From Alphaproteobacteria bacterium (lineage in GTDB: Bacteria > Pseudomonadota > Alphaproteobacteria > UBA6615), in NCBI GenBank assembly GCA_002722515.1, contig PBMH01000042.1:2346-66345 (forward strand): a stretch of 64,000 nt of DNA. Reading direction: 5' to 3'. The notes below the pieces were generated by a model. It was not told the DNA's origin. It saw only the letters and a program-made list of their open reading frames with translations, and ran no database searches. Positions 27,865 through 60,851 of the stretch are shown here, piece by piece (positions within the stretch are counted from its first letter, which is position 1; each line of letters opens with the position of its first letter). Made by a program: the position numbers and the translations under genes.

Positions 27865-27877
27865 CGATACTACTCCG

Positions 27878-30104: not shown

Positions 30105-31052
30105 ATGACGCTTCATCCGCAAGCGCAAGCGGTTCTGAACCTACTAAACGAGGCGCCGACGCCGCTCAAGGAAATGCTTCCGGATGAGGCGCGCGAAGCC
30201 TATGACCGCTTTATCGTGCCACGCAATTTCGACCCGGTACCGCTTGCCCGTATCGAGGACCGTAAGATTTCCGGGCCGGGCGGCGATATGCGGGTCCGCA
30301 TCTATTGGCCCAACGACGAAAGCGGACCGTTGCCGGTCTTCCTTTTCTTCCATGGGGGGGGCTTCGTAATCGGCAGCATAGAGAGCCGCGACCCCCAGTG
30401 CCGCATGATTTCGCGTGATACACCATGCATCGTCGTCTCCGTAGATTACCGGCTTGCGCCCGAGCACCCTTTCCCCGCCGCGCCTGACGACTGCTGGGCA
30501 GCGCTGCAATGGGTGCATGCGAAGGCCGGATCGTTAGGTGGCGATCCGGCCCGGATAGCTGTCGGCGGCGAGAGCGCAGGTGGCAATCTGGCGGCCGGGC
30601 TGGCCCTCCGGGCCCGGGACACTGGCGGCCCCGCGCTGAGCGCGCAGATTCTCGTCTACCCGGTCACCGACATGTTCTTTGAACAGGATCTGCCCTCCCG
30701 CATGTTTCTCGACGAGGACTACTTTCTGACCCGCGACCAAATGACCTGGTACTATGAGTGTTACACACCGGGAATAACCTCGACGGAAGACATTATGCTG
30801 TCACCCAGCAAATCCGCTAACCTGGACAACCTACCATTCACCCAGATAGTGACCGCAGAGTTCGATCCACTGCGCGACTATGGAAAACAGTACGGCGAAC
30901 GCCTAGCCGCCGCAGGCGTTACCGTGGAATATAGCTGTATGGCCGGCATGATCCACGGATACTGGCACTATGGAAAGCTGATCGATGCCGCCACCGAGGC
31001 ACTAAATCTTTCGATTAACGCCCTGCAACGCGCTTTCAACGACCGGAGTTGA
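30105..31052 (+). CDS. Alpha/beta hydrolase, hormone-sensitive-lipase-type esterase
   Basis: HGGGF oxyanion motif (FFHGGGFVIGS) and GESAGG nucleophile elbow. Confidence 0.85.
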   Translation: MTLHPQAQAVLNLLNEAPTPLKEMLPDEAREAYDRFIVPRNFDPVPLARIEDRKISGPGGDMRVRIYWPNDESGPLPVFLFFHGGGFVIGSIESRDPQCRMISRDTPCIVVSVDYRLAPEHPFPAAPDDCWAALQWVHAKAGSLGGDPARIAVGGESAGGNLAAGLALRARDTGGPALSAQILVYPVTDMFFEQDLPSRMFLDEDYFLTRDQMTWYYECYTPGITSTEDIMLSPSKSANLDNLPFTQIVTAEFDPLRDYGKQYGERLAAAGVTVEYSCMAGMIHGYWHYGKLIDAATEALNLSINALQRAFNDRS

Positions 31053-39767: not shown

Positions 39768-40372
39768 CTCTCGGTCTCCTCAATGGCTGCCACTTCCACG
39801 TCGACGGCCTCCTCATGTTCGAGCGGGGCTCTACCGAACAGCCCACGAATATTGTCCACGATGGCCAGGAAGAACTGGATACCGAGAAGTGTGCAGCCGA
39901 CTACCAATGCCAGCCGCTGCGGCCATTCCGGAAATGTGAAAACCCCTGTATTCCCGACAAAATGCCCGCCGTGATAGGCTTGCAGCCACTTTGGCCACCC
40001 CCCAATGACTATCGCCACCATCAGGCCAACTCCGGCCAAGTGAAACAGAATACCGAGGATGTTACCGATGGGCGGCCATTTGATCAGGACACGGCCATAG
40101 AGCGCATCCGACCGGGTAATACGTCCCACCTTCAACGTATGTGCCAACTGAAGATAGAGGATCGTGACGATCGAAATCTCAACGATTTCGGTTACACCGC
40201 TAAGAGGGGAGTTGAAAACAAACCGCAGCGTGATATCGAGAGTGATCAACAACATCAGGATAAAAATCCAACCCGACGCCACAGCGTTGCTTACCAGAAC
40301 GATCCAGTCGAATACTCTTCGAAGGACGTCCAGAATTCCGATAATTGCGCTCAATGGAAGTCGGGGAGCCAC
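39764..40372 (-). CDS. dctQ: TRAP transporter small permease
   Basis: 202 aa with 4 TM segments, positioned between the binding protein and DctM. Confidence 0.8.
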   Translation of the reverse strand: MAPRLPLSAIIGILDVLRRVFDWIVLVSNAVASGWIFILMLLITLDITLRFVFNSPLSGVTEIVEISIVTILYLQLAHTLKVGRITRSDALYGRVLIKWPPIGNILGILFHLAGVGLMVAIVIGGWPKWLQAYHGGHFVGNTGVFTFPEWPQRLALVVGCTLLGIQFFLAIVDNIRGLFGRAPLEHEEAVDVEVAAIEETER

Positions 40373-40432
40373 CTTGCGGCGGCTCCCCTCCCTATTTCAT
40401 ATTGATGTCTGTTTAAGATACTCGCGAATTGT

Positions 40433-41524
40433 CTATTCGCGATCCCACTGACGAGCAATCGGCTGGTTGTTAGCGCGCATCTCGTCCATCCAGGCCTTAA
40501 GAATCTCGGTGCCAGGCTGACCAGCTTTATTTCGCTGCTCTGCCCACTGCTTGCCCAAGGGCGGAAGGGCTTTGGCCCAAGCATTCCGCTGCGCAGTCGA
40601 GGCCTTAGTCACCTTAGTGCCGAATTCCTTCTCACAGCGCGCGAGACCCCATTTTGCACCGCCATTCACACGCTTGACATTTTCTTCAACCCAAGCCGAA
40701 GTCGAGGCCTGAAGTGCTTTCTGCACCTCTTCGGGTAAGCTGTCCCAAACGTCACGGTTCACGTTCAGCGAGAAACCATTCACACCACCGAGGGTCGCAT
40801 CGAATGCGAACGGAGCCGGCTCACAAAGCTTGAACGCCCCTGCGCCCTGGCGCCAGACTATCATTGCCTCATAGATGCCTGTACTCAGGCTGTTGTACGC
40901 GTCCGCAAGGTTCGTCTGCACACCAGCAGCACCGATTGCAAGAACCCACGGAAGGTTAGGGCCAGCCGCACCAACCTTAAGCCCCTTGACCTGGCCAAGG
41001 TCGCTGATCGGCTTCGCTGACCAGAGCATGTAGTTGTCAACCGCACCCGTCGGAGCGAGCGGAACCTGGTTGAATTCGTTAAGCCAAGTCTGGTTGTACT
41101 GCGGGAAAGTGTCCACCATCTTCTGTGTCGTACGACTAATAAGCGCGATGTCATCACTCGTGAACGGCGTCTTGAACGACACATCGTAGAGCGGGACCTT
41201 ATCAGCATGGAAAGCGGTCACGATTACGCCAAGGTCGCCAATACCCGTCTCAACACCTTCAAGCTCACCACGCGGCTTGACGATCTGGCCGCTGATGCCC
41301 TTGTTCCAGTTGATCTTATAGTTACCGGTCTTCGCGAGCGCGGCGTCTACGGCAGGCATATACGCATCAACCAGAGAACCAACCCAGGTTGCAGGCGGTG
41401 GATAACCGGAAATTGCCGTCAGGTTAATTGTTTCCTCACCGACCGCCGGTGCCGATACGGCAACAGTTGCAGTCGCAGCTGCGGCGATGAGCAGCGCTGT
41501 AGACTTAGACATTTTGGACATCAA
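40433..41524 (-). CDS. TRAP transporter substrate-binding protein (DctP-type by gene context)
   Basis: Signal peptide MMSKMSKSTALLIAAAATATVAVSAPA, about 360 aa, and the first gene of a P-Q-M arrangement. Confidence 0.75.
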   Translation of the reverse strand: MMSKMSKSTALLIAAAATATVAVSAPAVGEETINLTAISGYPPPATWVGSLVDAYMPAVDAALAKTGNYKINWNKGISGQIVKPRGELEGVETGIGDLGVIVTAFHADKVPLYDVSFKTPFTSDDIALISRTTQKMVDTFPQYNQTWLNEFNQVPLAPTGAVDNYMLWSAKPISDLGQVKGLKVGAAGPNLPWVLAIGAAGVQTNLADAYNSLSTGIYEAMIVWRQGAGAFKLCEPAPFAFDATLGGVNGFSLNVNRDVWDSLPEEVQKALQASTSAWVEENVKRVNGGAKWGLARCEKEFGTKVTKASTAQRNAWAKALPPLGKQWAEQRNKAGQPGTEILKAWMDEMRANNQPIARQWDRE

Positions 41525-41795: not shown

Positions 41796-42737
41796 TTATT
41801 GGGCGGCCCGAGCCAAAAGAGCCTCGGGACCAAACAATAACTCACGAAGCCAATTCGCCTGCGCGCCCGAGACCTTTTCGAGATGTTCATTGTTTGAGTA
41901 AAGGCTCATGTGATCGACACCTTCCACGATTGCCAATTCCTTGTTGGGACACGGCACCGCATTGAAAACATCAATCTCAAGATCCGCTGAGGTAATATTG
42001 TCGCCCTTGGCGATAGCCATCATGTAAGGCGTCTCGTAGATACGCTTCGCGTAGGGCATCACATCGTACTGCATTAACAGCTCGACCGATTCGAGCGTGT
42101 TTTCGTGGATATGATTTGGTGCCTCGCGTTCTTTAATATCATTAAAGATCGTGCAGACATGCGGGAACGGCCAGGAACTAATCTCGTTGTCCGGATCTGT
42201 TGTGGACATCGCTATCATCTGGCTCGGCTCACCGCGCTGGCGGCCCTCACGATCTTCGAGAATGAGCTTCTGAATGGCTGCGAACTTCCGCTCACCATGG
42301 CAACGCCGCATGGTCGGGAAACCATCAACAACGGGCACTACCGACATTGCAAACTTCACACGTGAATCGAGTGCAGCAACACACACGGCATGTCCGCCGG
42401 AATATGAAATACCCCAAACGCCTATGCGGTCGGTATCGATGTTTTCGAGGGTCTTCGCGTAGCTTACCGCGTTGCGGTAGTCCTCGATCTGATCCCACGG
42501 GTCAATGTGCTGACGCGGCAAACCGTCGCTTTCGCCGAAGCGGCGATAATCGAAAACGAGGCACGCGCAACCGATATCCACAAAATCGTCCGCATAGTAA
42601 GGCATGACGATTTCCTTCACGTAGCACCAGCCACCCGCCATGATTACCAGCGGCGGGTTTTTCGCACCGTCGGGCATGTAGAGGGTACCTCGAACGGTGT
42701 CGCCGCAACTATTGAACTCAATGTCTTGAGTTTGCAT
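41796..42737 (-). CDS. Alpha/beta hydrolase (S15/dienelactone-hydrolase-like)
   Basis: Nucleophile elbow GVWGISYSGG and VEGVDHMSLY histidine region. GGGAGGAG RBS. Confidence 0.75.
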   Translation of the reverse strand: MQTQDIEFNSCGDTVRGTLYMPDGAKNPPLVIMAGGWCYVKEIVMPYYADDFVDIGCACLVFDYRRFGESDGLPRQHIDPWDQIEDYRNAVSYAKTLENIDTDRIGVWGISYSGGHAVCVAALDSRVKFAMSVVPVVDGFPTMRRCHGERKFAAIQKLILEDREGRQRGEPSQMIAMSTTDPDNEISSWPFPHVCTIFNDIKEREAPNHIHENTLESVELLMQYDVMPYAKRIYETPYMMAIAKGDNITSADLEIDVFNAVPCPNKELAIVEGVDHMSLYSNNEHLEKVSGAQANWLRELLFGPEALLARAAQ

Positions 42738-46518: not shown

Positions 46519-46640
46519 CTCTTTCCCCTTAAACCATGTCTCTCCGGACATGCTTTCGATCACCGTGCGACCCGAATTACAGAGTCAATGTAGTCGGCTT
46601 TGTCTCGTCAAGACGTTTCAAGATACGGCACCAAAGCTAC

Positions 46641-47069
46641 CTAAAGTTCACCCCGGCGCATTTTCAGCTTCATCTCGACGATCTGATACATATCGAGGCC
46701 CGTCAGCGTGCAAATCTCGTCCATCGGCAACGATGTCTCCTGCAGCAGGACCCGTGCATGGCTCTTAGGGTCGCGTTTGCGATTGTTCCGCCGGGGCACC
46801 CGGGCCGCGGCAGCTGCTTCCTTACGCCTTTCGGCCTCGTCGAGGCCACGCTGGCGCGCTTCCTCCATCGCGGCGTCCCGCCGGGCCTTGTCGGCCTCGG
46901 TCCAAGCATCCGTCATCCGCATCGCCTTGGCGGCACCGTATGCATCCTTGGCCTGTTTACGTGAAACATTCGGAAAACGGCTTTCCGGGCGCTCAGGGGC
47001 CGGCCCGCCGCCGGCGGCCTCCTCAAGCGTCATCCCGCGACTCTTCGCCATGCGTTCGGCAGCGGCCAA
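46641..47069 (-). CDS. Hypothetical Arg/Ala/Glu-rich protein; the true 5' end is unclear
   Basis: TTG start at 47069. The frame stays open upstream to a TAA at 47184-47186 with protein-like sequence but no ATG, GTG or TTG. Confidence 0.4.
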   Translation of the reverse strand: MAAAERMAKSRGMTLEEAAGGGPAPERPESRFPNVSRKQAKDAYGAAKAMRMTDAWTEADKARRDAAMEEARQRGLDEAERRKEAAAAARVPRRNNRKRDPKSHARVLLQETSLPMDEICTLTGLDMYQIVEMKLKMRRGEL

Positions 47070-47265
47070 AGCCGCTGACCTCTCTCCCTCGTAAGGGCTC
47101 TCCTTCGCAAGGTTCAGAAGATTACGGAAGCGGGTCTGCTCCGCTTCGTCAAAGGCCCGTGCGTCACTGATGGCATCACCCCATTAGCCGTAGTTACAAT
47201 GAATCCCAGAGTATAACCGATTACGGCGTCACTCGAAGGGGTTCACACGTTTAATATTCAGCGTC

Positions 47266-47282
47266 ATCACCGAACCGGTGAT
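47266..47282. promoter_or_regulatory. Inverted repeat ATCACCG-N3-CGGTGAT
   Basis: Perfect 7-bp arms, read directly, in the divergent region between the gene at 46641-47069 and the SDR gene at 47444. Confidence 0.35.
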
Positions 47283-47443
47283 TCGGATCGAGATGTTGTC
47301 GGTCGTCAGCAACTTACAATCAAGTCCGATTTTGATCCCAGAGGAGACTGAGCCCCCGATTGACCACCCCAACTATAGCGGCGAAGGGGCTGCGGCGCAG
47401 CCTTACCAAGGATATGATTAGCTCGACAATGAAGGAGAGTACA

Positions 47444-48196
47444 ATGGCATCACTTGAAAACAAGGTCGCAATCATCACGGGTGCAGGCGGCGGCATCGGG
47501 CGCGCTATGTCCTCGCGCTTCGCGACCGAAGGCGCAGCGGTTGTCTGTGTCGACATCAACGAAGAACGGGTGAACACCACCGTAGCAGAGATAACCCACA
47601 ACGGAGGGCGGGGACTAGCAATCGCCGCGGACGTCGCCGAAGAAGCGACTGCGGCGGATGCCGTTGGCGCAGCGGTCAATGCGTTTGGTGGCCTGCACAT
47701 CCTCGTTAGTAATGCGATTTACGACCTTCCACTCGCTCCACTAACTGAAATTTCCTACGACGACTGGCAACGAACAATGGATGTCAATCTCAACAGCGCC
47801 TTCCTGTTCTCCAAGCACGCGATCCCAGTGATCGAGACCAATGGCGGTGGTAGCATTGTATTGATCGCATCCCAACTCGGGCGCACGGCGAAGCCCGGAC
47901 GCCCCTGGTATTGCGCTCAAAAGGGCGCGCTAATCAACATGGCCAAAGCCATGGCACTCGACCATGCACATCAGAATATCCGAGTAAACAGCCTTTCACC
48001 GGGGCCAGTAGAGACCGATAGGTTCGTGACAAACTTCAATGATCGCCGTGAAGCGCAGGCGGCCAACGCCACCATGTTCGATCGCCTCGGGAAACCCGAG
48101 GAGATCGCGGCTGGCGCGGTCTTCTTGGCCAGCGAAGAATCCACCTTTATGACCGGAGCCGACCTCCTTATCGACGGCGGCTATACCGCAATGTGA
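47444..48196 (+). CDS. SDR family oxidoreductase
   Basis: TGAGGGIG, NAI and YCAQK motifs. ATG at 47444 follows AAGGAGA. Confidence 0.9.
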   Translation: MASLENKVAIITGAGGGIGRAMSSRFATEGAAVVCVDINEERVNTTVAEITHNGGRGLAIAADVAEEATAADAVGAAVNAFGGLHILVSNAIYDLPLAPLTEISYDDWQRTMDVNLNSAFLFSKHAIPVIETNGGGSIVLIASQLGRTAKPGRPWYCAQKGALINMAKAMALDHAHQNIRVNSLSPGPVETDRFVTNFNDRREAQAANATMFDRLGKPEEIAAGAVFLASEESTFMTGADLLIDGGYTAM

Positions 48197-48412: not shown

Positions 48413-50182
48413 TTACCTCTCCGGGACTACCGGCAACAGAACGTGGGACGGGTGGTCCGGCCCCGTATGCAGCGTAACCTTCTTTCCAAAGACATCGAGC
48501 GGCCGGTTCGTGGGCATCTCATGCTTGAACGGCCCGACGCCATACTGGACTCGACCAGCAATCATCGAGTCCCCTGGTGTCCAGCCCGGCCAGACATAAT
48601 CGCGACCGCGCACACTGAGACCCAACCGGTAGCCCTCCGGCAGCACGATGGACGTCGGCCATATTTCAATATCCAGCTCATAGATATCACCCGGCGTCAG
48701 CGGCTGCACCTCATCATGGGCATGGTAAGGCCGATAGGGCAGGGTCTGGTCGGGATCGAGTTTGCGGTGTGACGCCCGCAACCAACCAAGACCAACCGGA
48801 GTGTGCGGATCGTTTGCGCCCTTGTAGACAATTTCCTTCATATCCGGCTTGAACGCCCGCAGCACCAGGAATAGATCGGCGTCTTCGGTTTCCGACGAAA
48901 TGAACAACTTAGCGGCCACGGGCCCCGTGATCTCCGTCTCTTCCTCCATCGGAGCCGTAAGAAAAGTCGCACCGTCCCCCATCGCCTCATAAGTGTAGCT
49001 CCCAACCTCGGCCATCGGCAGTTCGGATAGGGTCTTGCCCACTGGATCGAGATACATCTGAGTCCATTGGGTACGAGGGATAGGCCATTCCTCCTCGGCC
49101 CGCTCCACAAACACCTCGTCCGGATGCCGGATCAAGAGCTGTACCTTCGGCTGCGCGTCCCAGCCTGTGTCCTCGCCCTTTAGAAAATGTCCGAGGAAAC
49201 GTCGCTGTAGGTCGATACCATAGTCGGTATAGTAGTGAGTGAAGTGCTCCAAGCCATGAATCTCCAGCCATTTCTGGTCACTCGCGGAGTTCACGTAACC
49301 CTCTGTATTACCGCGCGGGTGTAGACCCACACCGCCCCAATTCCCCGATGACAGAAGCGGCACTTTGATTTTGGAGTAGTCCGGCATTCGGGCCTTCCAG
49401 TAATCGTCGACCAGCGGATGGGCTAGAATATCACTACCAAAATCTGTGCGATTGCCCGAGAGTTCTTCCTCCGACAATGTCTCAGGACCCGATATCCAAT
49501 CGCCATTAAGCCGGCTCTTCTTGCCGTAGGCGCCCTTTCCATGCTGCCGCGGTACAACGGCGGAATTGTACCAGATGGACGGGAAACGGCATGCAATGCC
49601 ACCATGATGGCCCATATCACGATAGAAGTCGGCCGCGCCTTCCCAGACACACATAGCAGCGAGATGCTTTGGCTGAAGAGATGCAACCTGCCATTGGTTC
49701 ATGCCGTAATATGAAATTCCCGAGGTACCGACCTTACCGTTTGACCAGCCCTGGGTTCCGGCCCAGTTGATGCAATCGTGAAAATCACGAGCTTCACGCG
49801 CCGACCAGACGTCAAGATAGCCAGGCGAGCGGCCTGCGCCACGAGAATCCACACGCATACAGATATAGCCGTCCGGCACCCATTTCTCTGGGTCGACCAG
49901 CTCCCAGTTCTGATACCGGTTCGACGAACCCGCGAGACAGTCGGGATAGTCCTCGATCATCTGTTTCCACTGGTAGGGATAGCCATCCTCCCACGCAAGC
50001 CACTTCGCATAGGGCCCATAGCTGATGATCACAGGATACTGGCCGTCATCGTCAGGGCGGTAGATATCGGCGCGCAAAATAATCCCATCATCCATCTCGA
50101 TCGGTACGTCCCAATCGATGCGCATGCCATCATTAACCTTCGATGTCATCTGGCTATCACCTGGTGTCTGAGTACTGCTCAT
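48413..50182 (-). CDS. CocE/NonD family serine hydrolase (peptidase S15 + PepX_C), paralogue 1
   Basis: GMRIDWDVPIEMDDG, VDSRGAGRSPG, GISYYG nucleophile elbow, NWGGVGLHPRGN and GWLRASHRKLD. GGGGGA RBS. No signal peptide. Confidence 0.85.
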   Translation of the reverse strand: MSSTQTPGDSQMTSKVNDGMRIDWDVPIEMDDGIILRADIYRPDDDGQYPVIISYGPYAKWLAWEDGYPYQWKQMIEDYPDCLAGSSNRYQNWELVDPEKWVPDGYICMRVDSRGAGRSPGYLDVWSAREARDFHDCINWAGTQGWSNGKVGTSGISYYGMNQWQVASLQPKHLAAMCVWEGAADFYRDMGHHGGIACRFPSIWYNSAVVPRQHGKGAYGKKSRLNGDWISGPETLSEEELSGNRTDFGSDILAHPLVDDYWKARMPDYSKIKVPLLSSGNWGGVGLHPRGNTEGYVNSASDQKWLEIHGLEHFTHYYTDYGIDLQRRFLGHFLKGEDTGWDAQPKVQLLIRHPDEVFVERAEEEWPIPRTQWTQMYLDPVGKTLSELPMAEVGSYTYEAMGDGATFLTAPMEEETEITGPVAAKLFISSETEDADLFLVLRAFKPDMKEIVYKGANDPHTPVGLGWLRASHRKLDPDQTLPYRPYHAHDEVQPLTPGDIYELDIEIWPTSIVLPEGYRLGLSVRGRDYVWPGWTPGDSMIAGRVQYGVGPFKHEMPTNRPLDVFGKKVTLHTGPDHPSHVLLPVVPER

Positions 50183-50203
50183 CTCTACGTCCCCCTAATT
50201 AGT

Positions 50204-51985
50204 CTATTTACGTTTCCTAGCCGCGCGTTTGGGCGGAACCACCGGCAGCAACAAGTGCGACGGGTGGTTCGGCCCGCAATGAATCGTGACGTTGCCGCCA
50301 TAAACCCGTGCATCCCGCCCGTCATGGACAAAGGGCCCAACGCCGGTGAATTCGTTCTTCATGTTGGATAACCTGCCACCTGAACCGCCCGGATAAACAT
50401 AGTCACAGCCACGTACGGTCAAGCCCAGGCGGTATCCTGGCGGTACTACAATCGAGGTCGGCCAGATCTCGACGTCAAGCTCACAGACTGATCCTGGCTT
50501 GAGAAGCTGTTTCTCGTCGTGGCTGTGGTAGGGCTGATACTTGCGTGATTTCTTTCGGTCTAACTTACGGTGCGAGGCCCGCAGCCAGCCTTGGGCAATC
50601 GGCGTGTGCGGGTCAAGTGCGCCCCTGAAGGTGACCTCCTTTAGGTCAGGTGCGAACAACCGCACGACCAAAAAAAGATCCGCATCCTTCGTCGTGGACG
50701 ATACGAACAGCTTAGCCGCCAGCGGTCCCGTGATTTCCCCCGCCTTGTCGGAGGCAGGCGCGAGAAATGTCACGCCATCACCGAGGCCGGCATAGGTGAT
50801 CGCGCACTTGCGTTCAGGCTTGCGCGCAGCCAGAGCCCCGCTCGCTGGATCGAGATAAACTTTAGTCCATTTCGTGCGCTTAATAGGCCATTCGCCTTCC
50901 GCACGCACCACGAATTTCTCACCGGGTTTCCGAACATTCAGAAGCACCTTCGGCTGGCGCTTCCAGCCAGTATCCTCGCCTTTCAAGAAATGCCCGAAGA
51001 AGCGCTTCTGAAGATCAAGCCCGTAGTCGGTGTAGAACTCCGTCCAGTGCTCGCGACCGTGCATCTCGAGCCATTTCTGTTTCGATGCCGCGTGAACAAA
51101 CCCGTCGATATTGCCGCGCGGATGCAGCCCCTGCCCGCCCCAGTTACCGGCCGACAAAACTGGCACATCAATCTTTGACCAGTCGGCAGAACGACCACGA
51201 TACCATTCATCATCAAGCGTTCGTGATAGCAACTCCCCGGGCAGATTCGTTCGGTTCTGCTTGAGCTTCGTCCGCGAGAAGGTTTCCGGACCACAGACGA
51301 GATCTCCATGGACCGCCGAACGAGGTCCGTTCTTGCCGAGGCCGTGCTGCACGGATTCGACTTGCTTATCATACCAATTGGTTACGAAGGTCGACAGGAT
51401 GCCGCCATGATAGTTAGAGTCCCGGTAATAGTCCCCGGCTCCTTCCCAAACGCATAACGCCGTCAGATGCTTCGGCTTTAGTGCCGCCACATGCCATTGG
51501 TTGATCGCATAATAGGAGATCCCGTTCAGCCCAACCTTGCCGTTCGACCAGGACTGCGTACCGGCCCAGTCGATGCAGGCCGCAAAGTCACGGGTCTCGC
51601 GCGGCGAACGCACGTCTACAACGCCCGGTGAACGACCGGAGCCCCGGGAATCGACCCGAATGACCACATAGCCGTCTGGCACCCACTTCTCCGGGTCTAC
51701 AACCTCCCAGTTGGCGTATTTGTTGGTCGAGCCCCGGGCAACCTCGGGAAAGGCCTCTACCATGATGTTCCAGGCGGTCTCGTAGCCCTCCTGGAAGGAC
51801 AGGCCCTTGGCGTAGGGCCCATGGCTCATTATGACAGGAAAGCGACCCTGCTTGTTCGGACGAAAGATATCTGCCCGCAGAACGTTACCGTCATCCATCT
51901 CAATCGGCACGTCCCAGTCAATGCGCATTCCATCGCACACCTGAGTACGAAACTGGGAATCATGAACATAGGGCTTTTTTGCCAC
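50204..51985 (-). CDS. CocE/NonD family serine hydrolase, paralogue 2
   Basis: Same motif set, with GISYYA. GTG start 8 nt after the paralogue 3 stop. Basic C-terminal tail PPKRAARKRK. Confidence 0.85.
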   Translation of the reverse strand: MAKKPYVHDSQFRTQVCDGMRIDWDVPIEMDDGNVLRADIFRPNKQGRFPVIMSHGPYAKGLSFQEGYETAWNIMVEAFPEVARGSTNKYANWEVVDPEKWVPDGYVVIRVDSRGSGRSPGVVDVRSPRETRDFAACIDWAGTQSWSNGKVGLNGISYYAINQWHVAALKPKHLTALCVWEGAGDYYRDSNYHGGILSTFVTNWYDKQVESVQHGLGKNGPRSAVHGDLVCGPETFSRTKLKQNRTNLPGELLSRTLDDEWYRGRSADWSKIDVPVLSAGNWGGQGLHPRGNIDGFVHAASKQKWLEMHGREHWTEFYTDYGLDLQKRFFGHFLKGEDTGWKRQPKVLLNVRKPGEKFVVRAEGEWPIKRTKWTKVYLDPASGALAARKPERKCAITYAGLGDGVTFLAPASDKAGEITGPLAAKLFVSSTTKDADLFLVVRLFAPDLKEVTFRGALDPHTPIAQGWLRASHRKLDRKKSRKYQPYHSHDEKQLLKPGSVCELDVEIWPTSIVVPPGYRLGLTVRGCDYVYPGGSGGRLSNMKNEFTGVGPFVHDGRDARVYGGNVTIHCGPNHPSHLLLPVVPPKRAARKRK

Positions 51986-51993
51986 GTCCGCGC

Positions 51994-53763
51994 CTATTTA
52001 GCAGGGATGATTGGCAACAGCACGTAACCAGCATGGTCGCCACCCAGATGCACCGTCACATTGTTGTCGAACACTTCGGGTGGGCGGTCGGTTTCGTCAT
52101 CATGCAGGAACGGTCCTACACCGGTGAAGGTGTTCTTCATGTTCGACAGGCCAGCATTCGGCTCGCCAGGATAGACATAGTCGCAACCCCGGATCGACAG
52201 CGCGAACCGGCAGCCCTTCGGCACCACGATGCCCGACCCGTGGATTTCTATGTCGAGCTCATAAACCTCGCCAGGTGTAAGCACCTGGAGCTCGTCATGG
52301 GTGTGATACGGAGCCCATTCCTTAGTGCGCGCCGGGTCGAGCTTGCGATGAGACGCACGGAGCCAACCAGACGCGACCGGCGTGTGCGGGTCGAGCGCAC
52401 CGCGAAAGGTCACCTCCTTCATGTCCGACTGGAAGACGCGCAGGACGACAAACATATCCGCGTCCTTGGTGTCCGACTCTATATTTACCTTCACCGCCAT
52501 AGGCCCGCAAATTTCTATATCCTCGGCCACCGGGTTCGAGAGAAAAGTGAGTCCATCGCCCATCGCACGATAGGTTATCGCCGCACTCTCACCAGCGGGC
52601 ACGTTCGAGAGAATCTGACCCGCGGGCTCAAAGTGGAACTTCGTCCATTCGGTACGCGGCAATGGCCAGTCTTCCTCTTCGCGCGGGACAAACTTCTCAC
52701 CCGGATGACGCACATTCAGAAGCACACGCGGCTGGTTCTTCCAGCCGGAATCCTCACCCTTGAGGAAGCAATCGAAGAAGCGCCACTGCAGATCATTGCC
52801 GTAATCCGTGTAGTAGAGCGACCAATGCTCCAGGCCATGGACCTCGAGCCACTTCTCCTGCGAGCCCGACAACATGTAGCCGTCGAAGTTGCCACGCGGG
52901 TGCAGGGGCGCGCCTCCCCAGTTGGCGCAACTCAGAACCGGGACATTAATCTTCGAGTAGTCGACCTCTCGTTCTTCAAAAAACTCGTCATAGAGGGGAT
53001 GGGCGCGCATAGATTGATGTAGGTCGAACCGGTTCGCACCCAGCTCGGAATCGGACAGGGTCTCGGGGCCGGCCGACCATTCTCCGTTAGCGCGTGATCG
53101 GTAGCCACGATCACCATAGCCGTGCTGCAGTTGCATGATCTGCATGTCGTACCAATTCTTGGCGAAGGTCGAGTAGATGCCGCCGTGATAGCTACCCTCG
53201 CGATAATAATCCGTAGAACCCTCCCACGGGCAGATAGCAGCCAGGTGTGGCGGTTGCATCGCGGCCACCTGCCATTGGTTTATTGCGTAATAGGAAATGC
53301 CGCTCAGGCCCACCTTGCCGTTCGACCAAGGCTGCACGCCGCCCCATTCGATGCAGTCATAGAAATCCTTGGTCTCGCGGGCGTTAAAATGCTCGAGATA
53401 CCCCGGTGAACGGCCGGCGCCTCGTGAATCCACGCGCACCAGAACATATCCGCGAGGCACCCATTTCTCCGGGTCTGCTACCTCCCACGCCTGGTGAATA
53501 TTAGTCGAGCCCCGCGGGACGTCCGGATGGTTTTCGCACATCAGGTCCCAACAGGTCTTGTAGATCTCCTCGAAGTGGAGATCTTTGCCATAGGGACCAT
53601 GAGACATGACAACGGGATACCGGCCATCATCGTCCGGACGATAGACATTCGCGCGCAGCACAAGCCCGTCATCCATCTCGATGGGCACGTCCCAGTCGAC
53701 ACGCATGCCCTCACGGGCCTCACTTTTGAACAGCGGATCGTCGGTATATTTGATGTCGATCAT
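51994..53763 (-). CDS. CocE/NonD family serine hydrolase, paralogue 3
   Basis: Same motif set. GGGGAG RBS. Long identical runs with paralogue 4. Confidence 0.85.
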   Translation of the reverse strand: MIDIKYTDDPLFKSEAREGMRVDWDVPIEMDDGLVLRANVYRPDDDGRYPVVMSHGPYGKDLHFEEIYKTCWDLMCENHPDVPRGSTNIHQAWEVADPEKWVPRGYVLVRVDSRGAGRSPGYLEHFNARETKDFYDCIEWGGVQPWSNGKVGLSGISYYAINQWQVAAMQPPHLAAICPWEGSTDYYREGSYHGGIYSTFAKNWYDMQIMQLQHGYGDRGYRSRANGEWSAGPETLSDSELGANRFDLHQSMRAHPLYDEFFEEREVDYSKINVPVLSCANWGGAPLHPRGNFDGYMLSGSQEKWLEVHGLEHWSLYYTDYGNDLQWRFFDCFLKGEDSGWKNQPRVLLNVRHPGEKFVPREEEDWPLPRTEWTKFHFEPAGQILSNVPAGESAAITYRAMGDGLTFLSNPVAEDIEICGPMAVKVNIESDTKDADMFVVLRVFQSDMKEVTFRGALDPHTPVASGWLRASHRKLDPARTKEWAPYHTHDELQVLTPGEVYELDIEIHGSGIVVPKGCRFALSIRGCDYVYPGEPNAGLSNMKNTFTGVGPFLHDDETDRPPEVFDNNVTVHLGGDHAGYVLLPIIPAK

Positions 53764-53774
53764 GGAACTCCCCG

Positions 53775-55544
53775 TTACTTCGCCGGTATAATTGGCAGCA
53801 GCACATAGCCGGCATTGGCACCGCCCAGATGCAATGTGACATTGTTATCAAAGACCTCCGCCGGGCGGTTGTCCGGGTCGTCATGTAGAAAAGGCCCGAC
53901 GCCGGTGAAAGTATTCTTCATGTTTGACAAGCCCGCATCTGTCTCTCCGGGATAGACATAGTCGCAGCCTTTGATCGAGAGCCCGAACCGATACCCCTTC
54001 GGCACAACAATCCCCGATGAATGTATTTCGATATCCACTTCGTAGACCTCGCCAGGCACAAGTTTCTGCACCTCATCGTTGCTATGAAACGGCGCGGCGT
54101 CGGTCGAGCGCGCGGGATCAAGCTTGCGATGTGACGCGCGCAGCCAACCGGACGCAACCGGCGTGTGCGGATCGAGCGCGCCTCGGAAGGTGACCTCCTT
54201 CATATCCGACCCAAACACCCGCAGAATGACGAACAGATCCGCGTCCTCAGTGTCCGACGAGACACTGAGCTTCACCGCCATCGGGCCACAGATTTCCAGA
54301 TCGTCAGATATCGGGCTCGACAAGAAGGTCAGGCCGTCCCCCATCGCCTCATAGGTAATCTCAGCAGCATCGTTGGCCGGGGTCTCGGACAGAATCTGGC
54401 CAGCCGGTTCGAAATGGTACCTAGCGTATTCGGTTCGTGGCAGCGGCCAGTCTTCCTCGGCACGCAGCACAAACTTCTCGCCGGGATGGCGCACGTTAAG
54501 CGAGACCCGGGGCTGATCCTTCCAGCCAGAATTATCGCCCTTCAGATAACAGTCAAAGAAGCGCCACTGCAGGTCGTTGCCATAGTCGGTGTAGTAGAGC
54601 GACCAGTGCTCAAGACCGTGGACCTCCAGAAATTTCTCCTTGGATCCGGTGTGCACAAACCCGTTGAAATTGCCACGCGGATGCAGAGGTGCGCCGCCCC
54701 AATTGGCACAGCTCAGCACCGGCACCTCGATCTTCGAAAGATCCGGCGTCAGCCTCGCGTAGTAATCATCGTCAAGGGGGTGAGAGATATACGTCCCGTA
54801 TAGATCATAGCGGTTGGCAGCCAGTTCCTCGTTTGAGAGGGTGTCCGGCCCTGCGGCGAGTTCACCATTGGCGCGTGACGCCCAGCCGCGGTCGCCATAG
54901 CCATGCTGAATCTTCAGGATCTGCATGTCGTACCAGTGCCGCGCGAAGGAGTCGTAAATCCCGTTCTGGTATGCGAGTTCCCGATAGAAATCGTTGAAGC
55001 CTTCCCACGGGCAGATAGCCGCGAGGTGCTTGGGCTGCAATGCCGCGACCTGCCACTGGTTGACGGCGTAATAGGAAATGCCGCTCAGGCCCACCTTGCC
55101 GTTCGACCAGGTCTGAACGCCGGCCCAGTCGATGCAGGCGGCGAAATCCTGCGTCTCGCGCGGGCTCCAATGTTCCAGATAGCCCGGCGAGCGACCCGCG
55201 CCCCGAGAATCCACACGGATAACAACATAGCCACGTGGCACCCATTTTTCAGGGTCGCAAACCTCCCAGCTCTGGTGGATATTCGTCGAGCCCTCCGGTA
55301 CGTCCGGGTGGTTCTCACACATGAGGTCCCAGCAGGTCTTGTAGATCTCCTCGAAGTGAAGATCCTTACCATACGGACCATGGGACATGATGACCGGATA
55401 GCCACCATCATCATCCGGACGATATACGTTGGCTCGCAGGACAACCCCGTCGTCCATCTCAATCGGAACATCCCAGTCGACGCGCATGCCCTCACGGACT
55501 TCTGTCTTGAACATCGGATCACCGGCGTAGGTGTTATCGTTCAT
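53775..55544 (-). CDS. CocE/NonD family serine hydrolase, paralogue 4
   Basis: Same motif set. AGGGAAGGAGA RBS. Confidence 0.85.
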   Translation of the reverse strand: MNDNTYAGDPMFKTEVREGMRVDWDVPIEMDDGVVLRANVYRPDDDGGYPVIMSHGPYGKDLHFEEIYKTCWDLMCENHPDVPEGSTNIHQSWEVCDPEKWVPRGYVVIRVDSRGAGRSPGYLEHWSPRETQDFAACIDWAGVQTWSNGKVGLSGISYYAVNQWQVAALQPKHLAAICPWEGFNDFYRELAYQNGIYDSFARHWYDMQILKIQHGYGDRGWASRANGELAAGPDTLSNEELAANRYDLYGTYISHPLDDDYYARLTPDLSKIEVPVLSCANWGGAPLHPRGNFNGFVHTGSKEKFLEVHGLEHWSLYYTDYGNDLQWRFFDCYLKGDNSGWKDQPRVSLNVRHPGEKFVLRAEEDWPLPRTEYARYHFEPAGQILSETPANDAAEITYEAMGDGLTFLSSPISDDLEICGPMAVKLSVSSDTEDADLFVILRVFGSDMKEVTFRGALDPHTPVASGWLRASHRKLDPARSTDAAPFHSNDEVQKLVPGEVYEVDIEIHSSGIVVPKGYRFGLSIKGCDYVYPGETDAGLSNMKNTFTGVGPFLHDDPDNRPAEVFDNNVTLHLGGANAGYVLLPIIPAK

Positions 55545-55668
55545 CGTTATCTCCTTCCCTCAACGTGGGCTTTTCTGTACGTCGCCACGAGGGAGTTATT
55601 CGTTGACACGCCCGTTGGGAACATTTCGGGCGGCCCGTATCTCCGGACCACCCGATCGTATTTCCCGT

Positions 55669-57459
55669 CTATCGCCTGCCGCCCTTCTTCGCAGGGATGA
55701 TTGGCAGCATCACATGAGCCTGTTGTTTCGGCCCGGTGTGCAAAGTCACATCGCCACCAAAGATTTCGGCTGGCCGATCACGCGGATCGTCATGACGGAA
55801 GATCGCGCACCCTGTCCAGTTGGCATACTCGCCGAGCTGCACATTAGAATCGCCCGGATAGACGTAATCCTTGCCTCGAACAGATAACGCAATTCGATAC
55901 CCCTTTGGCACCACGATGCAAGTCGGCCAGACCTCAATATCGAGCTCATAGGGCTTACCCGGCTTGAGAGGCTGCTCCTCGTCATGGGTATGATACGGCC
56001 GGTACGGCAAGCTATTCTTTTCATCTAGTTTACGGTGAGAGGCGCGCAGCCAGCCCTGGGCGATTGGCGTGTGCGGATCGAGCGCCCCCTGGAAAGTCAC
56101 TTCTTTCATATCCGGACCGAACACCCGGACCACCAGAAACATGTCAGCATCGCTCGTCGAGGATGATACGAACAGCTTGGAGGCAATTGGCCCAGTGATC
56201 TCCATATCTTCCTCGAGCGGATCGGACATGAACGTCACTCCGTCGGAGAAACCCCCATATGTTACCTCGCCTTTTGTTTTCGGAGGCTTGGTCGACAGGC
56301 TCATGTTCGACGGGTCGATATAGAAGTTCGTCCACTGGGTCCGCTTGAGGGGCCACTCATTCTCATGCCGCTCGACGAAGACTTCGCCCGGATGGCGCAC
56401 TTGCAGCTGAACGGTCGGCTGTTTGTCCCAGCCATTCTTCTCGCCCTTCAGATAATAACCAAAAAAGCGCTTCTGCAGATCCATGCCATAGTCAGTATAG
56501 AAATGTGTCCAGTGCTCAATCCCGTGCACCTCGAGCCATTTATCCTTGGACCTGGACTGGGTGAAGCCTTCGAAATTGCCGCGCGGATGCAAGCCTTGGC
56601 CGCCCCAGTTCGCGGTAGATAACATCGGTACCTTAACCTTGTTCCAGTCGGGCATGCGTGACTGCCAAAACTCATCGGTATCGAGCTTCCGAGCGAGGCA
56701 GTCCTCGTAGAAATTATTCCGGTTGGCTCCGAGCTCCTCCTCGGTCATCGTCGGCGGTCCCGCGACCCATTCCGCGTTCATTCGTGAACGTGGGCCGTTC
56801 GAGCCCTTGCCGTGCTGTACCGAGTAAACCTGCGCCTCCGACCAGTCCTTGACAAAGCCGTTGCACATGATGCCGCCATGATGGGCCATGTCACGGTAGA
56901 AATCTGCCGCTCCCTCCCAAGGGCAGATCGCCGCAAGATGCTTAGGCTGGAGCGCTGCAGCCTGCCATTGGTTTTCGGCGTAGTAAGAGATGCCGTTCAG
57001 TCCCACCTTACCGTTCGACCAAGACTGGACACCGGCCCAGTCGATGCAGATGGCAAGATCCTGGGCCTCGCGCAGGGACCATATGTCGATGACGCCGGGC
57101 GACCGGCCCGTCCCGCGCCCATCCACCCGGATGCAGACATAGTCGTCCGGAACCCAGCGTTCAGGGTCCACAACCTCCCAATTCTGATACTTTTCGCTGG
57201 TCCCTGCACCGATCTCAGGAAAATCCTCAAGCATGCGCTCATATTGGTCATGATAAGCATCGTCAAAGTGTAGAAGCTTGCCATAAGGCCCATACGTCAT
57301 GATGACCCCGTACTTACCAGCCTTTATCGGCCGGTAGACATCGCAGCGCAGCACGGTCCCGTCGTCCATCTCGATGGGCACATCCCAGTCGATACGCATG
57401 CCATCGCGCACATCGGTACGTGACTGCTCATCCATATACGGTGTTTTCTTCTTCGCCAT
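55669..57459 (-). CDS. CocE/NonD family serine hydrolase, paralogue 5 (first gene of the array)
   Basis: Same motif set. CAGGAGAG RBS. The MAKKK N-terminus and basic C-terminal tail resemble paralogue 2. Confidence 0.85.
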   Translation of the reverse strand: MAKKKTPYMDEQSRTDVRDGMRIDWDVPIEMDDGTVLRCDVYRPIKAGKYGVIMTYGPYGKLLHFDDAYHDQYERMLEDFPEIGAGTSEKYQNWEVVDPERWVPDDYVCIRVDGRGTGRSPGVIDIWSLREAQDLAICIDWAGVQSWSNGKVGLNGISYYAENQWQAAALQPKHLAAICPWEGAADFYRDMAHHGGIMCNGFVKDWSEAQVYSVQHGKGSNGPRSRMNAEWVAGPPTMTEEELGANRNNFYEDCLARKLDTDEFWQSRMPDWNKVKVPMLSTANWGGQGLHPRGNFEGFTQSRSKDKWLEVHGIEHWTHFYTDYGMDLQKRFFGYYLKGEKNGWDKQPTVQLQVRHPGEVFVERHENEWPLKRTQWTNFYIDPSNMSLSTKPPKTKGEVTYGGFSDGVTFMSDPLEEDMEITGPIASKLFVSSSTSDADMFLVVRVFGPDMKEVTFQGALDPHTPIAQGWLRASHRKLDEKNSLPYRPYHTHDEEQPLKPGKPYELDIEVWPTCIVVPKGYRIALSVRGKDYVYPGDSNVQLGEYANWTGCAIFRHDDPRDRPAEIFGGDVTLHTGPKQQAHVMLPIIPAKKGGRR

Positions 57460-57712
57460 CGAGCTCTCCTGAGAAATAATTTATTTGCTCCGCAGGCGCT
57501 TGGCCCGCCGAGTTTGGTTGAGACTTATTATAGAATAATGGAAATCGGTCTTTTAGTGAAAGAGCCCCCTTTACCTTCGCATACCGGCAATACGCGCCAC
57601 GTGGGATAGTTATACCGTCACGATGAAAAAACCGCAGAGTGTCGGGGTCCTCTGGACCGCAACCGCGTCTTCAGCGGCGTCGCAAGTATCATCGGCTGAT
57701 CTCTACGGTATC

Positions 57713-58516
57713 TCACAAGCGATTATTCGGATCGACCGTATAGCCCAAACTGTTCATCCAGATAAGGCTCGACCATGTGTCCATGGATGGGTCGAGTTCC
57801 ATGCCGATCGCCCCTTCATACCCTTTCTCGACAGCACGTCGTGCTAGCCAGAGTAAATCAAGCTCCCCCACGCCGGGCTCATGGCGGTCGGGCGGATTGC
57901 CAATCTGGACATAGCCGATCATCGGCCAGTACTCGTCCATAATATCAGTTAGGGTACCCGTCTCCTCGTACCGCATATGATAAGTGTCGTAGACGAGGCC
58001 AACATTTTCGCGACCGACCGCGTTCACAATATCACGCGCCTGAGCCATGGTCTGCATCGCCCAATCGGGTATGCGCTGGGCCGTCACGGGTTCCAGCAGG
58101 AACTTGCAACGATGGTCACTCGAGGCGGCGGCAATATAGTCGAGGTTCTCGATATAGGTCTCCACGCAGCGTTCGCGGGATTCTCCCAGCGGTACCGGGC
58201 CAGCACCCACGTTTATCGAATAGAAATCACAATGCTGGATATATTCCAGCGCCTGGTCTGCCGCGCGGCGGAATTCGTCCTGCTTGCCCGGCTGCGCCCC
58301 CAAGCCACGCACCCCAGCATCCCAGTCGGCCGGGACCACACAATACATAAACTCAAGACCGTGATCGTCTAGTAAACCCTTCAGCTCGTTCTTTGGCAAC
58401 TCGTATGGAAAATGCCACTCGATGGCAGTACAGCCGATCTTGGCCGCTGCAGCGAACCGCTCACGTATCGGTAGCTCTAGGAATAGGTGATAGAAATTGG
58501 GTGCAAAGCGAAGCAT
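57713..58516 (-). CDS. Hydroxypyruvate isomerase family TIM-barrel protein (Hyi/OtnI-like)
   Basis: Collinear by eye with E. coli Hyi: MLRF..N, EPV/EPI, YDxYHM and GYVQIGNPPDRHEPGVGE. Confidence 0.75.
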   Translation of the reverse strand: MLRFAPNFYHLFLELPIRERFAAAAKIGCTAIEWHFPYELPKNELKGLLDDHGLEFMYCVVPADWDAGVRGLGAQPGKQDEFRRAADQALEYIQHCDFYSINVGAGPVPLGESRERCVETYIENLDYIAAASSDHRCKFLLEPVTAQRIPDWAMQTMAQARDIVNAVGRENVGLVYDTYHMRYEETGTLTDIMDEYWPMIGYVQIGNPPDRHEPGVGELDLLWLARRAVEKGYEGAIGMELDPSMDTWSSLIWMNSLGYTVDPNNRL

Positions 58517-58692
58517 GATCAAGGCAATCCTAGGTTGTACGCGTTAGGGGACGGGGGTTAGAAAGACCCTGTGAAAGCTCGTAAATATGCGCTTACAACC
58601 AAAGTCCGTCTTGTAAACTACCCAAAGGAAATACAGGAACGCTGACGACTATTTACCGCTCGCTCCGAACGGTCAAAAAAATTAATTAGTTC

Positions 58693-59430: not shown

Positions 59431-60600
59431 CTAGGTCGACCGGCCCTCCATCATCAAATCAAGACCAACCGCCAAGAGGCCGAAAACCAGCCCCCAGAAC
59501 GCCGAACCGACCCCAAAGACCGATAACCCAGACGCCGTCACGGTCACCGTGAGAACTGCGGCAAACCGCGTCTGTTCAGGCGCTAATGCAGCACCCAACG
59601 CATGCATAAGCGGGCCGAGCAACGCAAGGCCGGCCACAGTGGCAATAACGCCCGGCGGCAAGGTAGAAAAACCGGCGACAACCGTAACAGCTGCAACCGC
59701 AAGAACCAGAAACCCGGTGCCGTAGAACAACCCAGAGAGCCAGCGCTTCGAAGGATCAGGATGCGTATCGACCCCGGTACATATGGATGCGGTTATCGAG
59801 GACATGGTTGTTGTGTGTGCGCCAAGGGGCGCAGTCAGCAGAGACATGAGACCCGTGATCGCAAGCGCAGAGCGCGTCGGCACCGAATAGCCGGATGCCC
59901 TTAGCACAGCAAATCCAGGCAGATTTTGGGAGGCCATCGAGACTAAAAAAAGTGGAACCCCGAGCCCCAGTATTGCCCCGGGTTCAAACGACGGAACAAT
60001 CAGAGCGAAAGCCGCCAGCGATCCGCTAGCGTCATAAGGCGCGGTCTTCCCGAGAATAACGGCCCAACCAATTCCCATTACCAACACCACGATAACGGCC
60101 CAGGTCGGGCTATATAGGCGTACTACCAGAAACACTCCCACAAGGGGCAGAACGAGCTTGGGATCCATAGTTGCAGCGTCGAAAACATCAACGGAGAAAC
60201 CTATAAGGACACCAGCCAGCATTGCCGATGCAATCGCCGAAGGTATCCTCTCAATCAGAGTCGTAAGCGGACGAAACGCAGAACTCACCAACACCAATAA
60301 TGCTGTTACCAGGAACGCACCAACTGCCGCCTCCATAGAATAACTTGGTATGCCGGCCGAGGCTGTCCCCGCAATCAGTGCCGCGCCAGGCGTCGACCAT
60401 GCCGTAATCATTGGCAGACGATGACGTAACGAAAGTACGATGCTAGCCACGCCGGTACCGAGGCAGATCGCAGACACCCAAGACGCGACCTGTACCGGGT
60501 TCGCACCCACCGCCTGTGCCCCGGCAATCACAATTGCAATACTGCTGCCGAAGCCGACCAAAATTCCCACAATTGCAGAGCTGAAGAGCGATATTTGCAT
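59431..60600 (-). CDS. BenE family benzoate/H+ symporter-like transporter
   Basis: 389 aa, polytopic, with the AWSTPGAALIAG block typical of BenE/YdcO. Confidence 0.75.
   Translation of the reverse strand: MQISLFSSAIVGILVGFGSSIAIVIAGAQAVGANPVQVASWVSAICLGTGVASIVLSLRHRLPMITAWSTPGAALIAGTASAGIPSYSMEAAVGAFLVTALLVLVSSAFRPLTTLIERIPSAIASAMLAGVLIGFSVDVFDAATMDPKLVLPLVGVFLVVRLYSPTWAVIVVLVMGIGWAVILGKTAPYDASGSLAAFALIVPSFEPGAILGLGVPLFLVSMASQNLPGFAVLRASGYSVPTRSALAITGLMSLLTAPLGAHTTTMSSITASICTGVDTHPDPSKRWLSGLFYGTGFLVLAVAAVTVVAGFSTLPPGVIATVAGLALLGPLMHALGAALAPEQTRFAAVLTVTVTASGLSVFGVGSAFWGLVFGLLAVGLDLMMEGRST

Positions 60601-60775: not shown

Positions 60776-60851
<76 letters not shown>

Follow-up and report, generated by a model that had tools for sequence, protein, structure and literature searches.

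A recurrent tandem array of five SACOL2612-like CocE/NonD family hydrolase genes in a marine alphaproteobacterium

Overview of the array

A 64,000-nt stretch of the genome of a marine alphaproteobacterium (lineage UBA6615; contig PBMH01000042.1 of assembly GCA_002722515.1, positions 2,346 to 66,345), hereafter the window, contains a tandem array of five genes encoding hydrolases of the CocE/NonD (peptidase S15) family, all of which belong to the branch typified by SACOL2612. The five copies are old, real paralogues, and together they represent a genuine, recurrent, and undescribed gene arrangement built from members of a known family. As to function, we lean with moderate confidence towards an operon-like battery of cytoplasmic isozymes, each with its own specificity among the small esters or amides that the cell imports. 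The genes were numbered P1–P5 in the order of transcription and, as described below, were assigned to four types (A–D):

P1, 55669–57459, minus strand: 596 aa, ATG start, type A; first gene of the array, encoding a SACOL2612-like CocE/NonD hydrolase
P2, 53775–55544, minus strand: 589 aa, type B
P3, 51994–53763, minus strand: 589 aa, type B, second copy
P4, 50204–51985, minus strand: 593 aa, GTG start, type C, weak ribosome-binding site
P5, 48413–50182, minus strand: 589 aa, type D; last gene of the array, convergent with the short-chain dehydrogenase/reductase (SDR) gene at 47360–48196 (plus strand)

Gene calls and organization

All five open reading frames (ORFs) lie on the minus strand, and the spacers computed from their coordinates are 124, 11, 8, and 21 nt between P1/P2, P2/P3, P3/P4, and P4/P5, respectively. 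An earlier reading of the sequence (the first-pass annotation), which counted the genes in plus-strand order so that its 'paralogue 2' is our P4, had listed five co-oriented ORFs of the same lengths and spacing, four of them with their own ribosome-binding site and one with a weak site; these features were all recovered. Shine–Dalgarno-like sequences precede P1 (AGGAGA), P2 (GGAAGGAGA), P3 (GGGGAG), and P5 (GGGGGA), and only a weak GCGGA is present as a ribosome-binding site upstream of P4. The GTG start proposed for P4, located 8 nt past the P3 stop, is supported by N-terminal homology, i.e. MAKKPY in P4 parallels MAKKKTPY in P1. The operon-like packing that had been proposed thus agrees with both the spacing and the ribosome-binding site data. 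No further copy was found by tblastn in the window beyond the five.

All five proteins align end to end, with 56–61% identity to P1 and 78% identity between P2 and P3. The motifs quoted in the first-pass annotation as common to all copies are present, apart from two small exceptions in P1, which has VDGRGTGRSPG at the position of VDSRG(A/S)GRSPG and MLPIIP at that of LLP(V/I)(V/I)P. A Kyte–Doolittle scan of the five proteins revealed no N-terminal hydrophobic segment or transmembrane-like stretch (highest 19-residue mean, ≤1.22), in line with the earlier view that they lack a signal peptide and are cytoplasmic.

Family membership and fold

The proposed membership in the S15/CocE-NonD family was confirmed by profile searches. 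PF02129 (Peptidase_S15) matched all five proteins with E-values of 1e-40 to 5e-46 (140–158 bits; cut-off, 23), and PF08530 (PepX_C jelly-roll) matched them with E-values of 4e-29 to 1e-35 (103–124 bits; cut-off, 22.5); the values for P1 were 5e-46 and 1e-35, respectively. Whole-protein scores against TIGR00976 (CocE_NonD) ranged from 230 to 246 bits (245.9 for P1), compared with a cut-off of 66.3, and NCBI labels relatives of P1–P5 as 'CocE/NonD family hydrolase'. The closest solved structure in sequence is SACOL2612 (3IB3/3III), a structural-genomics CocE/NonD hydrolase of Staphylococcus aureus, with E-values of 1e-86 in single-sequence and 1e-114 in profile searches, followed by CocE of Rhodococcus sp. 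MB1 (1e-17 and 6e-29, respectively). An AlphaFold2 model, made of P1 only (pLDDT, 74.6; pTM, 0.76), matched 3III/3IB3 with TM-scores of 0.77–0.83 (3III, 0.77/0.82) and CocE (1JU3) with 0.66/0.69. P1–P5 are therefore assigned to the SACOL2612-like branch of the CocE/NonD family, and each protein combines a core of the alpha/beta-hydrolase type with a helical cap and a jelly-roll domain at the C-terminus.

SACOL2612 is 31–32% identical to the window proteins and shares the hallmarks of the clade, namely PWEG, D-x-YR, QGLHxRG, and VHG, but, unlike P1–P5, it is not known as part of an array. CocE, which is encoded by a single gene in a cocaine-degradation cluster, has the same three-domain architecture (PF02129 plus PF08530), but its identity to the window proteins is 21–22% and its cap region could not be aligned reliably, and the array genes are not CocE orthologues. 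The CocE clade (48–67% identical to CocE) is distinct from the window clade, and the two are joined only at the profile level. PepX orthology was likewise rejected: the NCBIfam PepX models NF003780, NF003781, and NF003782 gave 20–75 bits, far under their cut-offs of 642–881. The same family and fold also include the alpha-amino-acid ester hydrolases (AEHs; 1MPX and 2B4K), the N,N-diethyl-meta-toluamide (DEET) hydrolase DthA, PepX (1LNS and 6NFF), and the thaumarchaeal S15 aminopeptidase 4PF1. The P1 model matches the AEH/PepX/4PF1 group in Foldseek with E-values of 1e-19 to 1e-26 (TMq, 0.57–0.64), and AEH 1MPX is far from the window clade in sequence, with a profile E-value of only 8e-4. The DEET hydrolase has been described as a two-domain CocE/NonD enzyme with a broad amide and ester range (10.1101/2023.09.27.559296). 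All of the characterised family members, i.e. CocE, the AEHs, PepX, and the DEET hydrolase, are thus only distantly related to P1–P5.

Age and recurrence of the array

Nucleotide identity between the copies is 60–63%, or 74% between P2 and P3. Synonymous differences (pS) amount to 0.66–0.75 and are thus saturated, and the longest exact run shared by any two copies, at the nucleophile elbow of P2 and P3, measures 44 nt. Arrays of three to five genes recur in many marine contigs, and the gene contents identified (loci are designated by L numbers; MAG, metagenome-assembled genome) are as follows:

P1-P2-P3-P4-P5: L008 (Rhodospirillaceae MAG) and the metagenome contigs L088, L100, and L106
P1-P3-P4-P5: L087 (3.6-Mb contig), L092, L094, L097, and L098
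P1-P2-P4-P5: L009
P1-P3-P4: L027
P1-P2-P5: L096

P2 is absent from L087, L092, L094, L097, and L098, and P3 is absent from L009, L090, and L096. The core of the array thus consists of four types, of which B is present twice in some genomes and once in others. Each copy, moreover, has its own orthologues in related MAGs. The P1 orthologues in L007, L008, L009, and L087 are 90–96% identical, with dN/dS values of 0.02–0.04, and the corresponding dN/dS values are 0.06–0.09 for both P2 and P3, 0.05–0.09 for P4, and 0.03–0.07 for P5. Every copy is therefore kept by strong purifying selection (dN/dS, 0.02–0.09).

The first-pass annotation had considered that the array might be an assembly expansion of one or two genes. 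Together with a recent, dose-raising amplification, this explanation is ruled out for practical purposes, and we regard it as extremely improbable: the DNA identity of 60–74%, the saturated synonymous sites, the short longest exact run, and the selection acting on each set of orthologues all contradict it, as does the fact that independent MAGs, metagenome contigs, and the 3.6-Mb contig L087 all carry the array. The only point in its favour is that three independent short-read metagenome contigs, L001 (ending at 11824), L002 (ending at 11789), and L003 (ending at 4514), which carry identical P1 and P2, all stop 90–120 nt into P3, so that assemblers evidently have trouble at that point. The 44-nt P2/P3 repeat is located elsewhere, and a presence/absence polymorphism of P2 or P3 among strains, of the kind seen in L087 and L009, may break the assembly graph at P3 in these contigs.

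Four paralogue types shared with other phyla

Scans for the SACOL2612-like clade yielded at least 431 loci in genomes and at least 491 stretches in metagenomes. In a neighbour-joining tree of 129 subfamily sequences, P1, P2/P3, P4, and P5 fall in four separate clades, each of which includes sequences from other phyla. The array thus consists of four anciently separated types, i.e. A (P1), B (P2 and P3), C (P4), and D (P5). Relatives of P1 include proteins from Nitrospinota MAG contigs (83% identity), Pseudolabrys (76%), a Modestobacter MAG (71%, L036), Methylomirabilota (69%), and a Halobacteriota MAG (66%, L074), all of which exceed the 56–61% identity of P1 to its array neighbours. The closest relatives of P5 outside its clade, with 73–74% identity, are found in L077 (Burkholderiales MAG), L085 (unclassified bacterial MAG), and L086 (Nitrospinota MAG), and P5 too is thus more similar to proteins of other phyla than to the other array members. 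The placement of P4 is the least secure, because its nearest outside relatives are only 63–64% identical. The tree and these identities rule out a single lineage-specific clade, which the first-pass annotation had raised as a question for a family phylogeny.

Xanthobacteraceae and Pseudolabrys commonly carry a tandem gene pair, and in the same tree P1 clusters with its leading member and P2/P3 with its trailing one. A 73% homologue is present in Aquabacter sp. CN5-332. This A-to-B pair is also present on ~40 soil metagenome contigs, and it shows the same gene order and tight spacing as the window but comprises two genes. Copy numbers were counted within ±10 kb in 80 genome loci from the scan (L007–L086): 45 contain one copy, 27 contain two, and 8 contain three to five. 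The first-pass annotation had taken characterised relatives to be single genes; given the multi-copy genome loci just counted and the ~40 soil contigs carrying the pair, this does not hold for the SACOL2612-like subfamily, and the main ground on which the array had been considered unusual therefore falls away. The types nevertheless also occur singly: type A is the only copy in all 45 of the single-copy loci, and type B stands by itself in L103, L105, and L107, each examined with flanks of 6 kb.

In contigs L010 and L011, which are binned as Nitrospinota, the A and B proteins share 83 and 78% identity with P1 and P2, respectively. These relatives and the 66% relative in the archaeal MAG point to horizontal transfer or mis-binning. 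Paralogue pairs were also observed in the true CocE clade of actinomycetes, namely P0133/P0148 on one 23,966-nt contig of Nocardia vinacea and P0154/P0156 on one 55,260-nt contig of Amycolatopsis thailandensis; given these pairs, S15 paralogues may cluster outside the SACOL2612-like clade as well.

Active site

Active-site residues were located by alignment to CocE, whose sequence was checked against 1JU3 (1316 bits over residues 1–574); residue numbers are those of P1. Because phmmer and hmmsearch against the PDB left region 200–325 unaligned to CocE, and hhalign against the single CocE sequence was unstable there (placing Asp259 on Glu297 and His287 on His319), a profile–profile comparison was used instead, in which an alignment of 24 CocE-clade sequences matched the window clade with a probability of 100% and an E-value of 9e-41. 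The nucleophile Ser117 of CocE corresponds to Ser158 in the nucleophile elbow (G-V-S117-Y-L versus G-I-S158-Y-Y), the oxyanion-hole Tyr44 corresponds to Tyr59 (NPY44 versus GPY59), and His287, the catalytic His after beta8, corresponds to His316 within HG(I/L)EHW. In contrast, Asp259 of CocE falls on Gly287, which is followed by a two-residue 'LH' insertion in the window clade. The secondary structure of the P1 model agrees with this alignment: a strand at 279–284 is followed by the WGGQG loop and then by a helix starting at Leu290-His291, and a strand at 307–312 is followed four residues later by His316. Ser158, Tyr59, Glu182, Asp186, Gly287, His291, His312, and His316 show no variation, either among the five copies or across the subfamily sequences (129 of 129).

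The first-pass annotation had placed a candidate catalytic His in LHPRGN, i.e. at His291, and had regarded the paralogues as catalytically intact. Neither an assignment to His291 nor an intact Ser-Asp-His triad is supported, since the column of CocE His287 is occupied by His316 and that of Asp259 by an invariant Gly. The alignment indicates that His316 is more likely than His291 to be the catalytic base; His291 lies near the canonical acid position and is probably not the base. Candidates for the third catalytic residue are Glu182 at the end of beta6, His291, and residue 297, the last of which comes from the weaker single-sequence alignment and is variable in the subfamily (Glu in 116, Asn in 7, and Asp in 4 sequences).

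With the canonical triad incomplete, some or all of the copies might be binding proteins, pseudoenzymes, or acyltransferases rather than hydrolases. Gly287 is common to all copies and relatives, the crystallised relative 3IB3, which likewise lacks an Asp at the CocE Asp259 column, has Glu at the position of His316 (RKEW versus IEHW), and the alternative acid position 297 is Asn in P2. We consider this quite improbable, however. The invariance of Ser158 in its GxSxx elbow and of Tyr59, His316, Glu182, and His291 is typical of a conserved active site, and some alpha/beta hydrolases, e.g. the haloalkane dehalogenases LinB and DhaA, carry a relocated catalytic acid at the end of beta6. The very low dN/dS values also fit a constrained enzyme, although they are no proof of catalysis.

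Expression signals

Two conserved elements flank P1:

57527–57561, minus strand: promoter-like element TTTCACTAAAAGACCGATTTCCATTATTCTATAAT, 35 nt, upstream of P1, ending in TATAAT
55627–55654, minus strand: GC-rich RNA hairpin CGGGTGGTCCG-GAGATA-CGGGCCGCCCG, 11-bp stem, directly after the P1 stop

The promoter-like element contains two direct TT(T/C)CA(C/T)TA repeats, and its TATAAT hexamer (57527–57532) is located 67 nt before the P1 ATG. This block has changed very little between the window, L007, L008, L087, and L088, in which the flanking intergenic DNA has diverged, and it was found upstream of P1 only. It may be interpreted as the array promoter plus a regulator site, and a dedicated promoter ahead of P1 is probable. 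A hairpin of variable sequence lies between this block and the ribosome-binding site of P1.

The hairpin behind P1 is unique in the window (0 expected by chance) and is conserved in L007, L008, and L009. Its stem varies only by C/T on the 5' arm, and these variants still pair (G-C or G-U) in the mRNA sense. No U-tract is located behind it, and Rfam returned no match in or near the array, this hairpin included. The element may serve as an intercistronic stabiliser or attenuator, and it might set the ratio of P1 to P2–P5. No convincing intergenic terminator was detected in the array.

Divergence of the cap and possible roles of the copies

The types differ most in the predicted cap (residues 184–270, between beta6 and beta7 in the P1 model), which is 44% identical between types, compared with 67–69% for the two core segments and 56–59% for the jelly-roll. 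Within a type, the cap is 88% conserved across genomes, similar to the rest of the protein. In CocE, the cap contributes to the substrate pocket, and the observed pattern is suggestive of what would be expected if each type keeps its own pocket.

These observations favour the set of isozymes with differing specificities proposed above, because the cap has diverged between types yet is conserved within each type, and because copy number varies among relatives and types A and B occur alone. The setting is also that of cytoplasmic catabolism: the proteins lack a signal peptide, A-to-B pairs elsewhere are linked to an importer, and the neighbours in the window are catabolic genes. The data establish the family, fold, gene order, age, selection, and divergence pattern of the copies, whereas co-transcription, hydrolysis as such, distinct specificities, and the choice of a third catalytic residue are inferred. 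Each isozyme would act independently, with Ser158 as the nucleophile, His316 as the base, and Tyr59 in the oxyanion hole. The isozymes would cleave ester or amide bonds in imported small organic molecules, with the target bonds related but differing from one isozyme to the next; the hydrolysis products would feed the surrounding catabolic genes.

Several points weigh against this interpretation. Because caps as a rule change more quickly than cores, their divergence is by itself no proof of new specificities. The canonical catalytic Asp after beta7 is not present in P1–P5, the column being Gly in all 129 subfamily sequences; activity can therefore not be taken for granted, and a different mechanism may apply. 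The literature provided no published function for SACOL2612 and no substrate for the clade. With regard to expression as one unit, co-transcription is deduced from strand, spacing, and the lack of terminator-like sites, a simple promoter/terminator scan gave no signal above the shuffled background, and the hairpin behind P1 could uncouple P1 from P2–P5. Finally, the tight spacing (8–21 nt) and the wide conservation of the A-to-B pair would also fit subunits of a complex.

In such a complex, the paralogue types, or at least A and B, would be subunits of one hetero-oligomeric hydrolase, whose co-synthesis would be balanced by the operon and its short spacers. CocE is a dimer and AEH is a tetramer. 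The A-to-B pair is conserved, with spacers of ~10–150 nt, in the ~40 soil contigs and in many genome loci; an overlap of 3 nt between the tblastn matches to A and B was seen in L034. Within the window, the 8–21-nt spacers and the weak ribosome-binding site of P4, with its GTG so close to the P3 stop, point in the same direction. This arrangement is nevertheless unlikely. The variable copy number and the solitary occurrence of types A and B, the former as the sole copy in 45 of the 80 counted loci, argue against an obligate five-subunit complex; an obligate hetero-oligomer was one of the two hypotheses of the first-pass annotation. A fixed five-part stoichiometry is excluded because close relatives drop P2, P3, or P4, and no copy looks purely structural because each keeps all of the invariant active-site residues. 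A more specific version, in which types A–D form one hetero-oligomeric cytoplasmic hydrolase with a rewired triad (Ser158, His316, and Glu182 or His291 replacing Asp), is very doubtful; if true, it would set the SACOL2612-like clade apart within the S15 family as a branch with several subunits and a distinct mechanism.

The enzymes might instead act sequentially on one complex substrate, such as an oligomer or a compound with several ester groups, from which each enzyme would take off a different group. All occurrences of the array keep the order A-B-(B)-C-D, the upstream isomerase-fold gene described below is conserved with it, and the A-to-B pair elsewhere is tied to one dedicated ABC importer, all of which would suit such a pathway; the loss of members in close relatives, however, would break an obligate linear pathway. 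Sequential action has, in our judgement, a similarly low probability to that of the hetero-oligomer; it and independent isozymes are not separable on the present data. In summary, neither hypothesis of the first-pass annotation is proven, but the evidence leans towards the one that it had termed a substrate-range battery.

Gene neighbourhood

The following features surround the array:

60779–60851, minus strand: tRNA gene (74 bits), between the RodA gene and the BenE-family transporter gene
59431–60600: BenE-family transporter gene (TIGR00843, above cut-off), two genes upstream of the array
57713–58522, minus strand: Hyi/OtnI-like gene with a xylose-isomerase-fold TIM barrel (PF01261), adjoining the array upstream
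41796–42737: alpha/beta hydrolase gene, with sub-threshold similarity to the UilS lactonase
38430–41524: TRAP transporter genes
30105–31052: Abhydrolase_3 esterase gene, in the catabolic neighbourhood
26107–29941: hydantoinase/oxoprolinase A and B gene pair, in the catabolic neighbourhood

Upstream, the order on the strand of the array is PBP2, RodA, the tRNA gene, the BenE-family transporter gene, a deaminase-fold gene (plus strand), and the Hyi/OtnI-like gene. The last of these scores ~213 bits against TIGR03234 and NF043033, under the cut-offs of both models. Downstream, the convergent SDR gene is followed by genes for an enoyl-CoA hydratase (ECH), an acyl-CoA dehydrogenase (ACAD), an AMP-dependent ligase, the alpha/beta hydrolase, the TRAP transporter, and an amidohydrolase_2 protein. 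The earlier statement that no transporter adjoins the array is thus only partly right, given the BenE-family gene two genes upstream and the TRAP transporter in the same neighbourhood. Gene content behind the tRNA gene varies among relatives: the BenE-family gene is absent in L009, and L087 carries different upstream genes.

The region 21550–47000 constitutes a dense catabolic neighbourhood with the array at its edge. It contains two AMP-dependent ligases, two acyl-CoA dehydrogenases, two enoyl-CoA hydratases, several SDRs, and an APH-family kinase, in addition to the genes listed above. Between the ECH and SDR genes, ~800 nt (46564–47359) contain only ORFs of 128–142 aa; none of these has a Pfam match, so that no regulator was found next to the array, and this segment is either non-coding or codes for an unrecognised small protein.

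The window's neighbouring genes were searched for in the 80 genome loci and in 78 metagenome loci. Of these neighbours, the Hyi/OtnI-like and deaminase genes alone accompany the array, and they do so in the marine clade only; the SDR, ECH, ACAD, ligase, and TRAP genes showed no co-occurrence with array relatives in these loci. The Hyi/OtnI-like gene is located upstream in all related marine contigs with enough flanking sequence, i.e. L007, L008, L009, L065, L087, and 11 of 11 metagenome contigs. When neighbouring genes were clustered de novo, only one strongly recurrent partner emerged, a CUT1-type ABC importer, found mainly in Xanthobacteraceae and also in L034 and L071. It consists of SBP_bac_1, two BPD_transp_1 permeases, and a UgpC/MalK-like ATPase, and the A-to-B pair directly follows it. 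Importer-linked pairs were identified in L013–L037, L080, L034, and L071, with the importer ~4.5 kb upstream of the matched gene, and their lineages are Xanthobacteraceae, Pseudolabrys, and two marine alphaproteobacterial lineages. The binding protein of the importer weakly resembles sugar-binding proteins (E-value, 6e-8). This importer is absent from the window, which differs in this respect from the soil pairs. Genes for an aldo/keto reductase, FmdA/AmdA, an M24 creatinase/prolidase-like protein, and TctC recur near the importer-linked pairs.

Significance of the array

The searchable literature on SACOL2612, 'NonD family', COG2936, and 'acyl esterase' contained no account of this clade, of its missing Asp, or of tandem arrays, and no functional assignment of such an array was found there, in keeping with the first-pass annotation, which knew of no described five-member operon of this kind. 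In other respects, the array represents an ordinary paralogue expansion in a catabolic neighbourhood; it opens no long-standing question and is unlikely to surprise specialists. The SACOL2612-like clade itself is, however, very widespread in soil and ocean bacteria, with 62–83% identity across bacterial phyla. The marine array, in which four old types stand side by side, together with the importer-linked A-to-B pair of soil bacteria, offers a route to the substrates of these enzymes, and the missing canonical Asp poses a concrete mechanistic question for the alpha/beta-hydrolase field.

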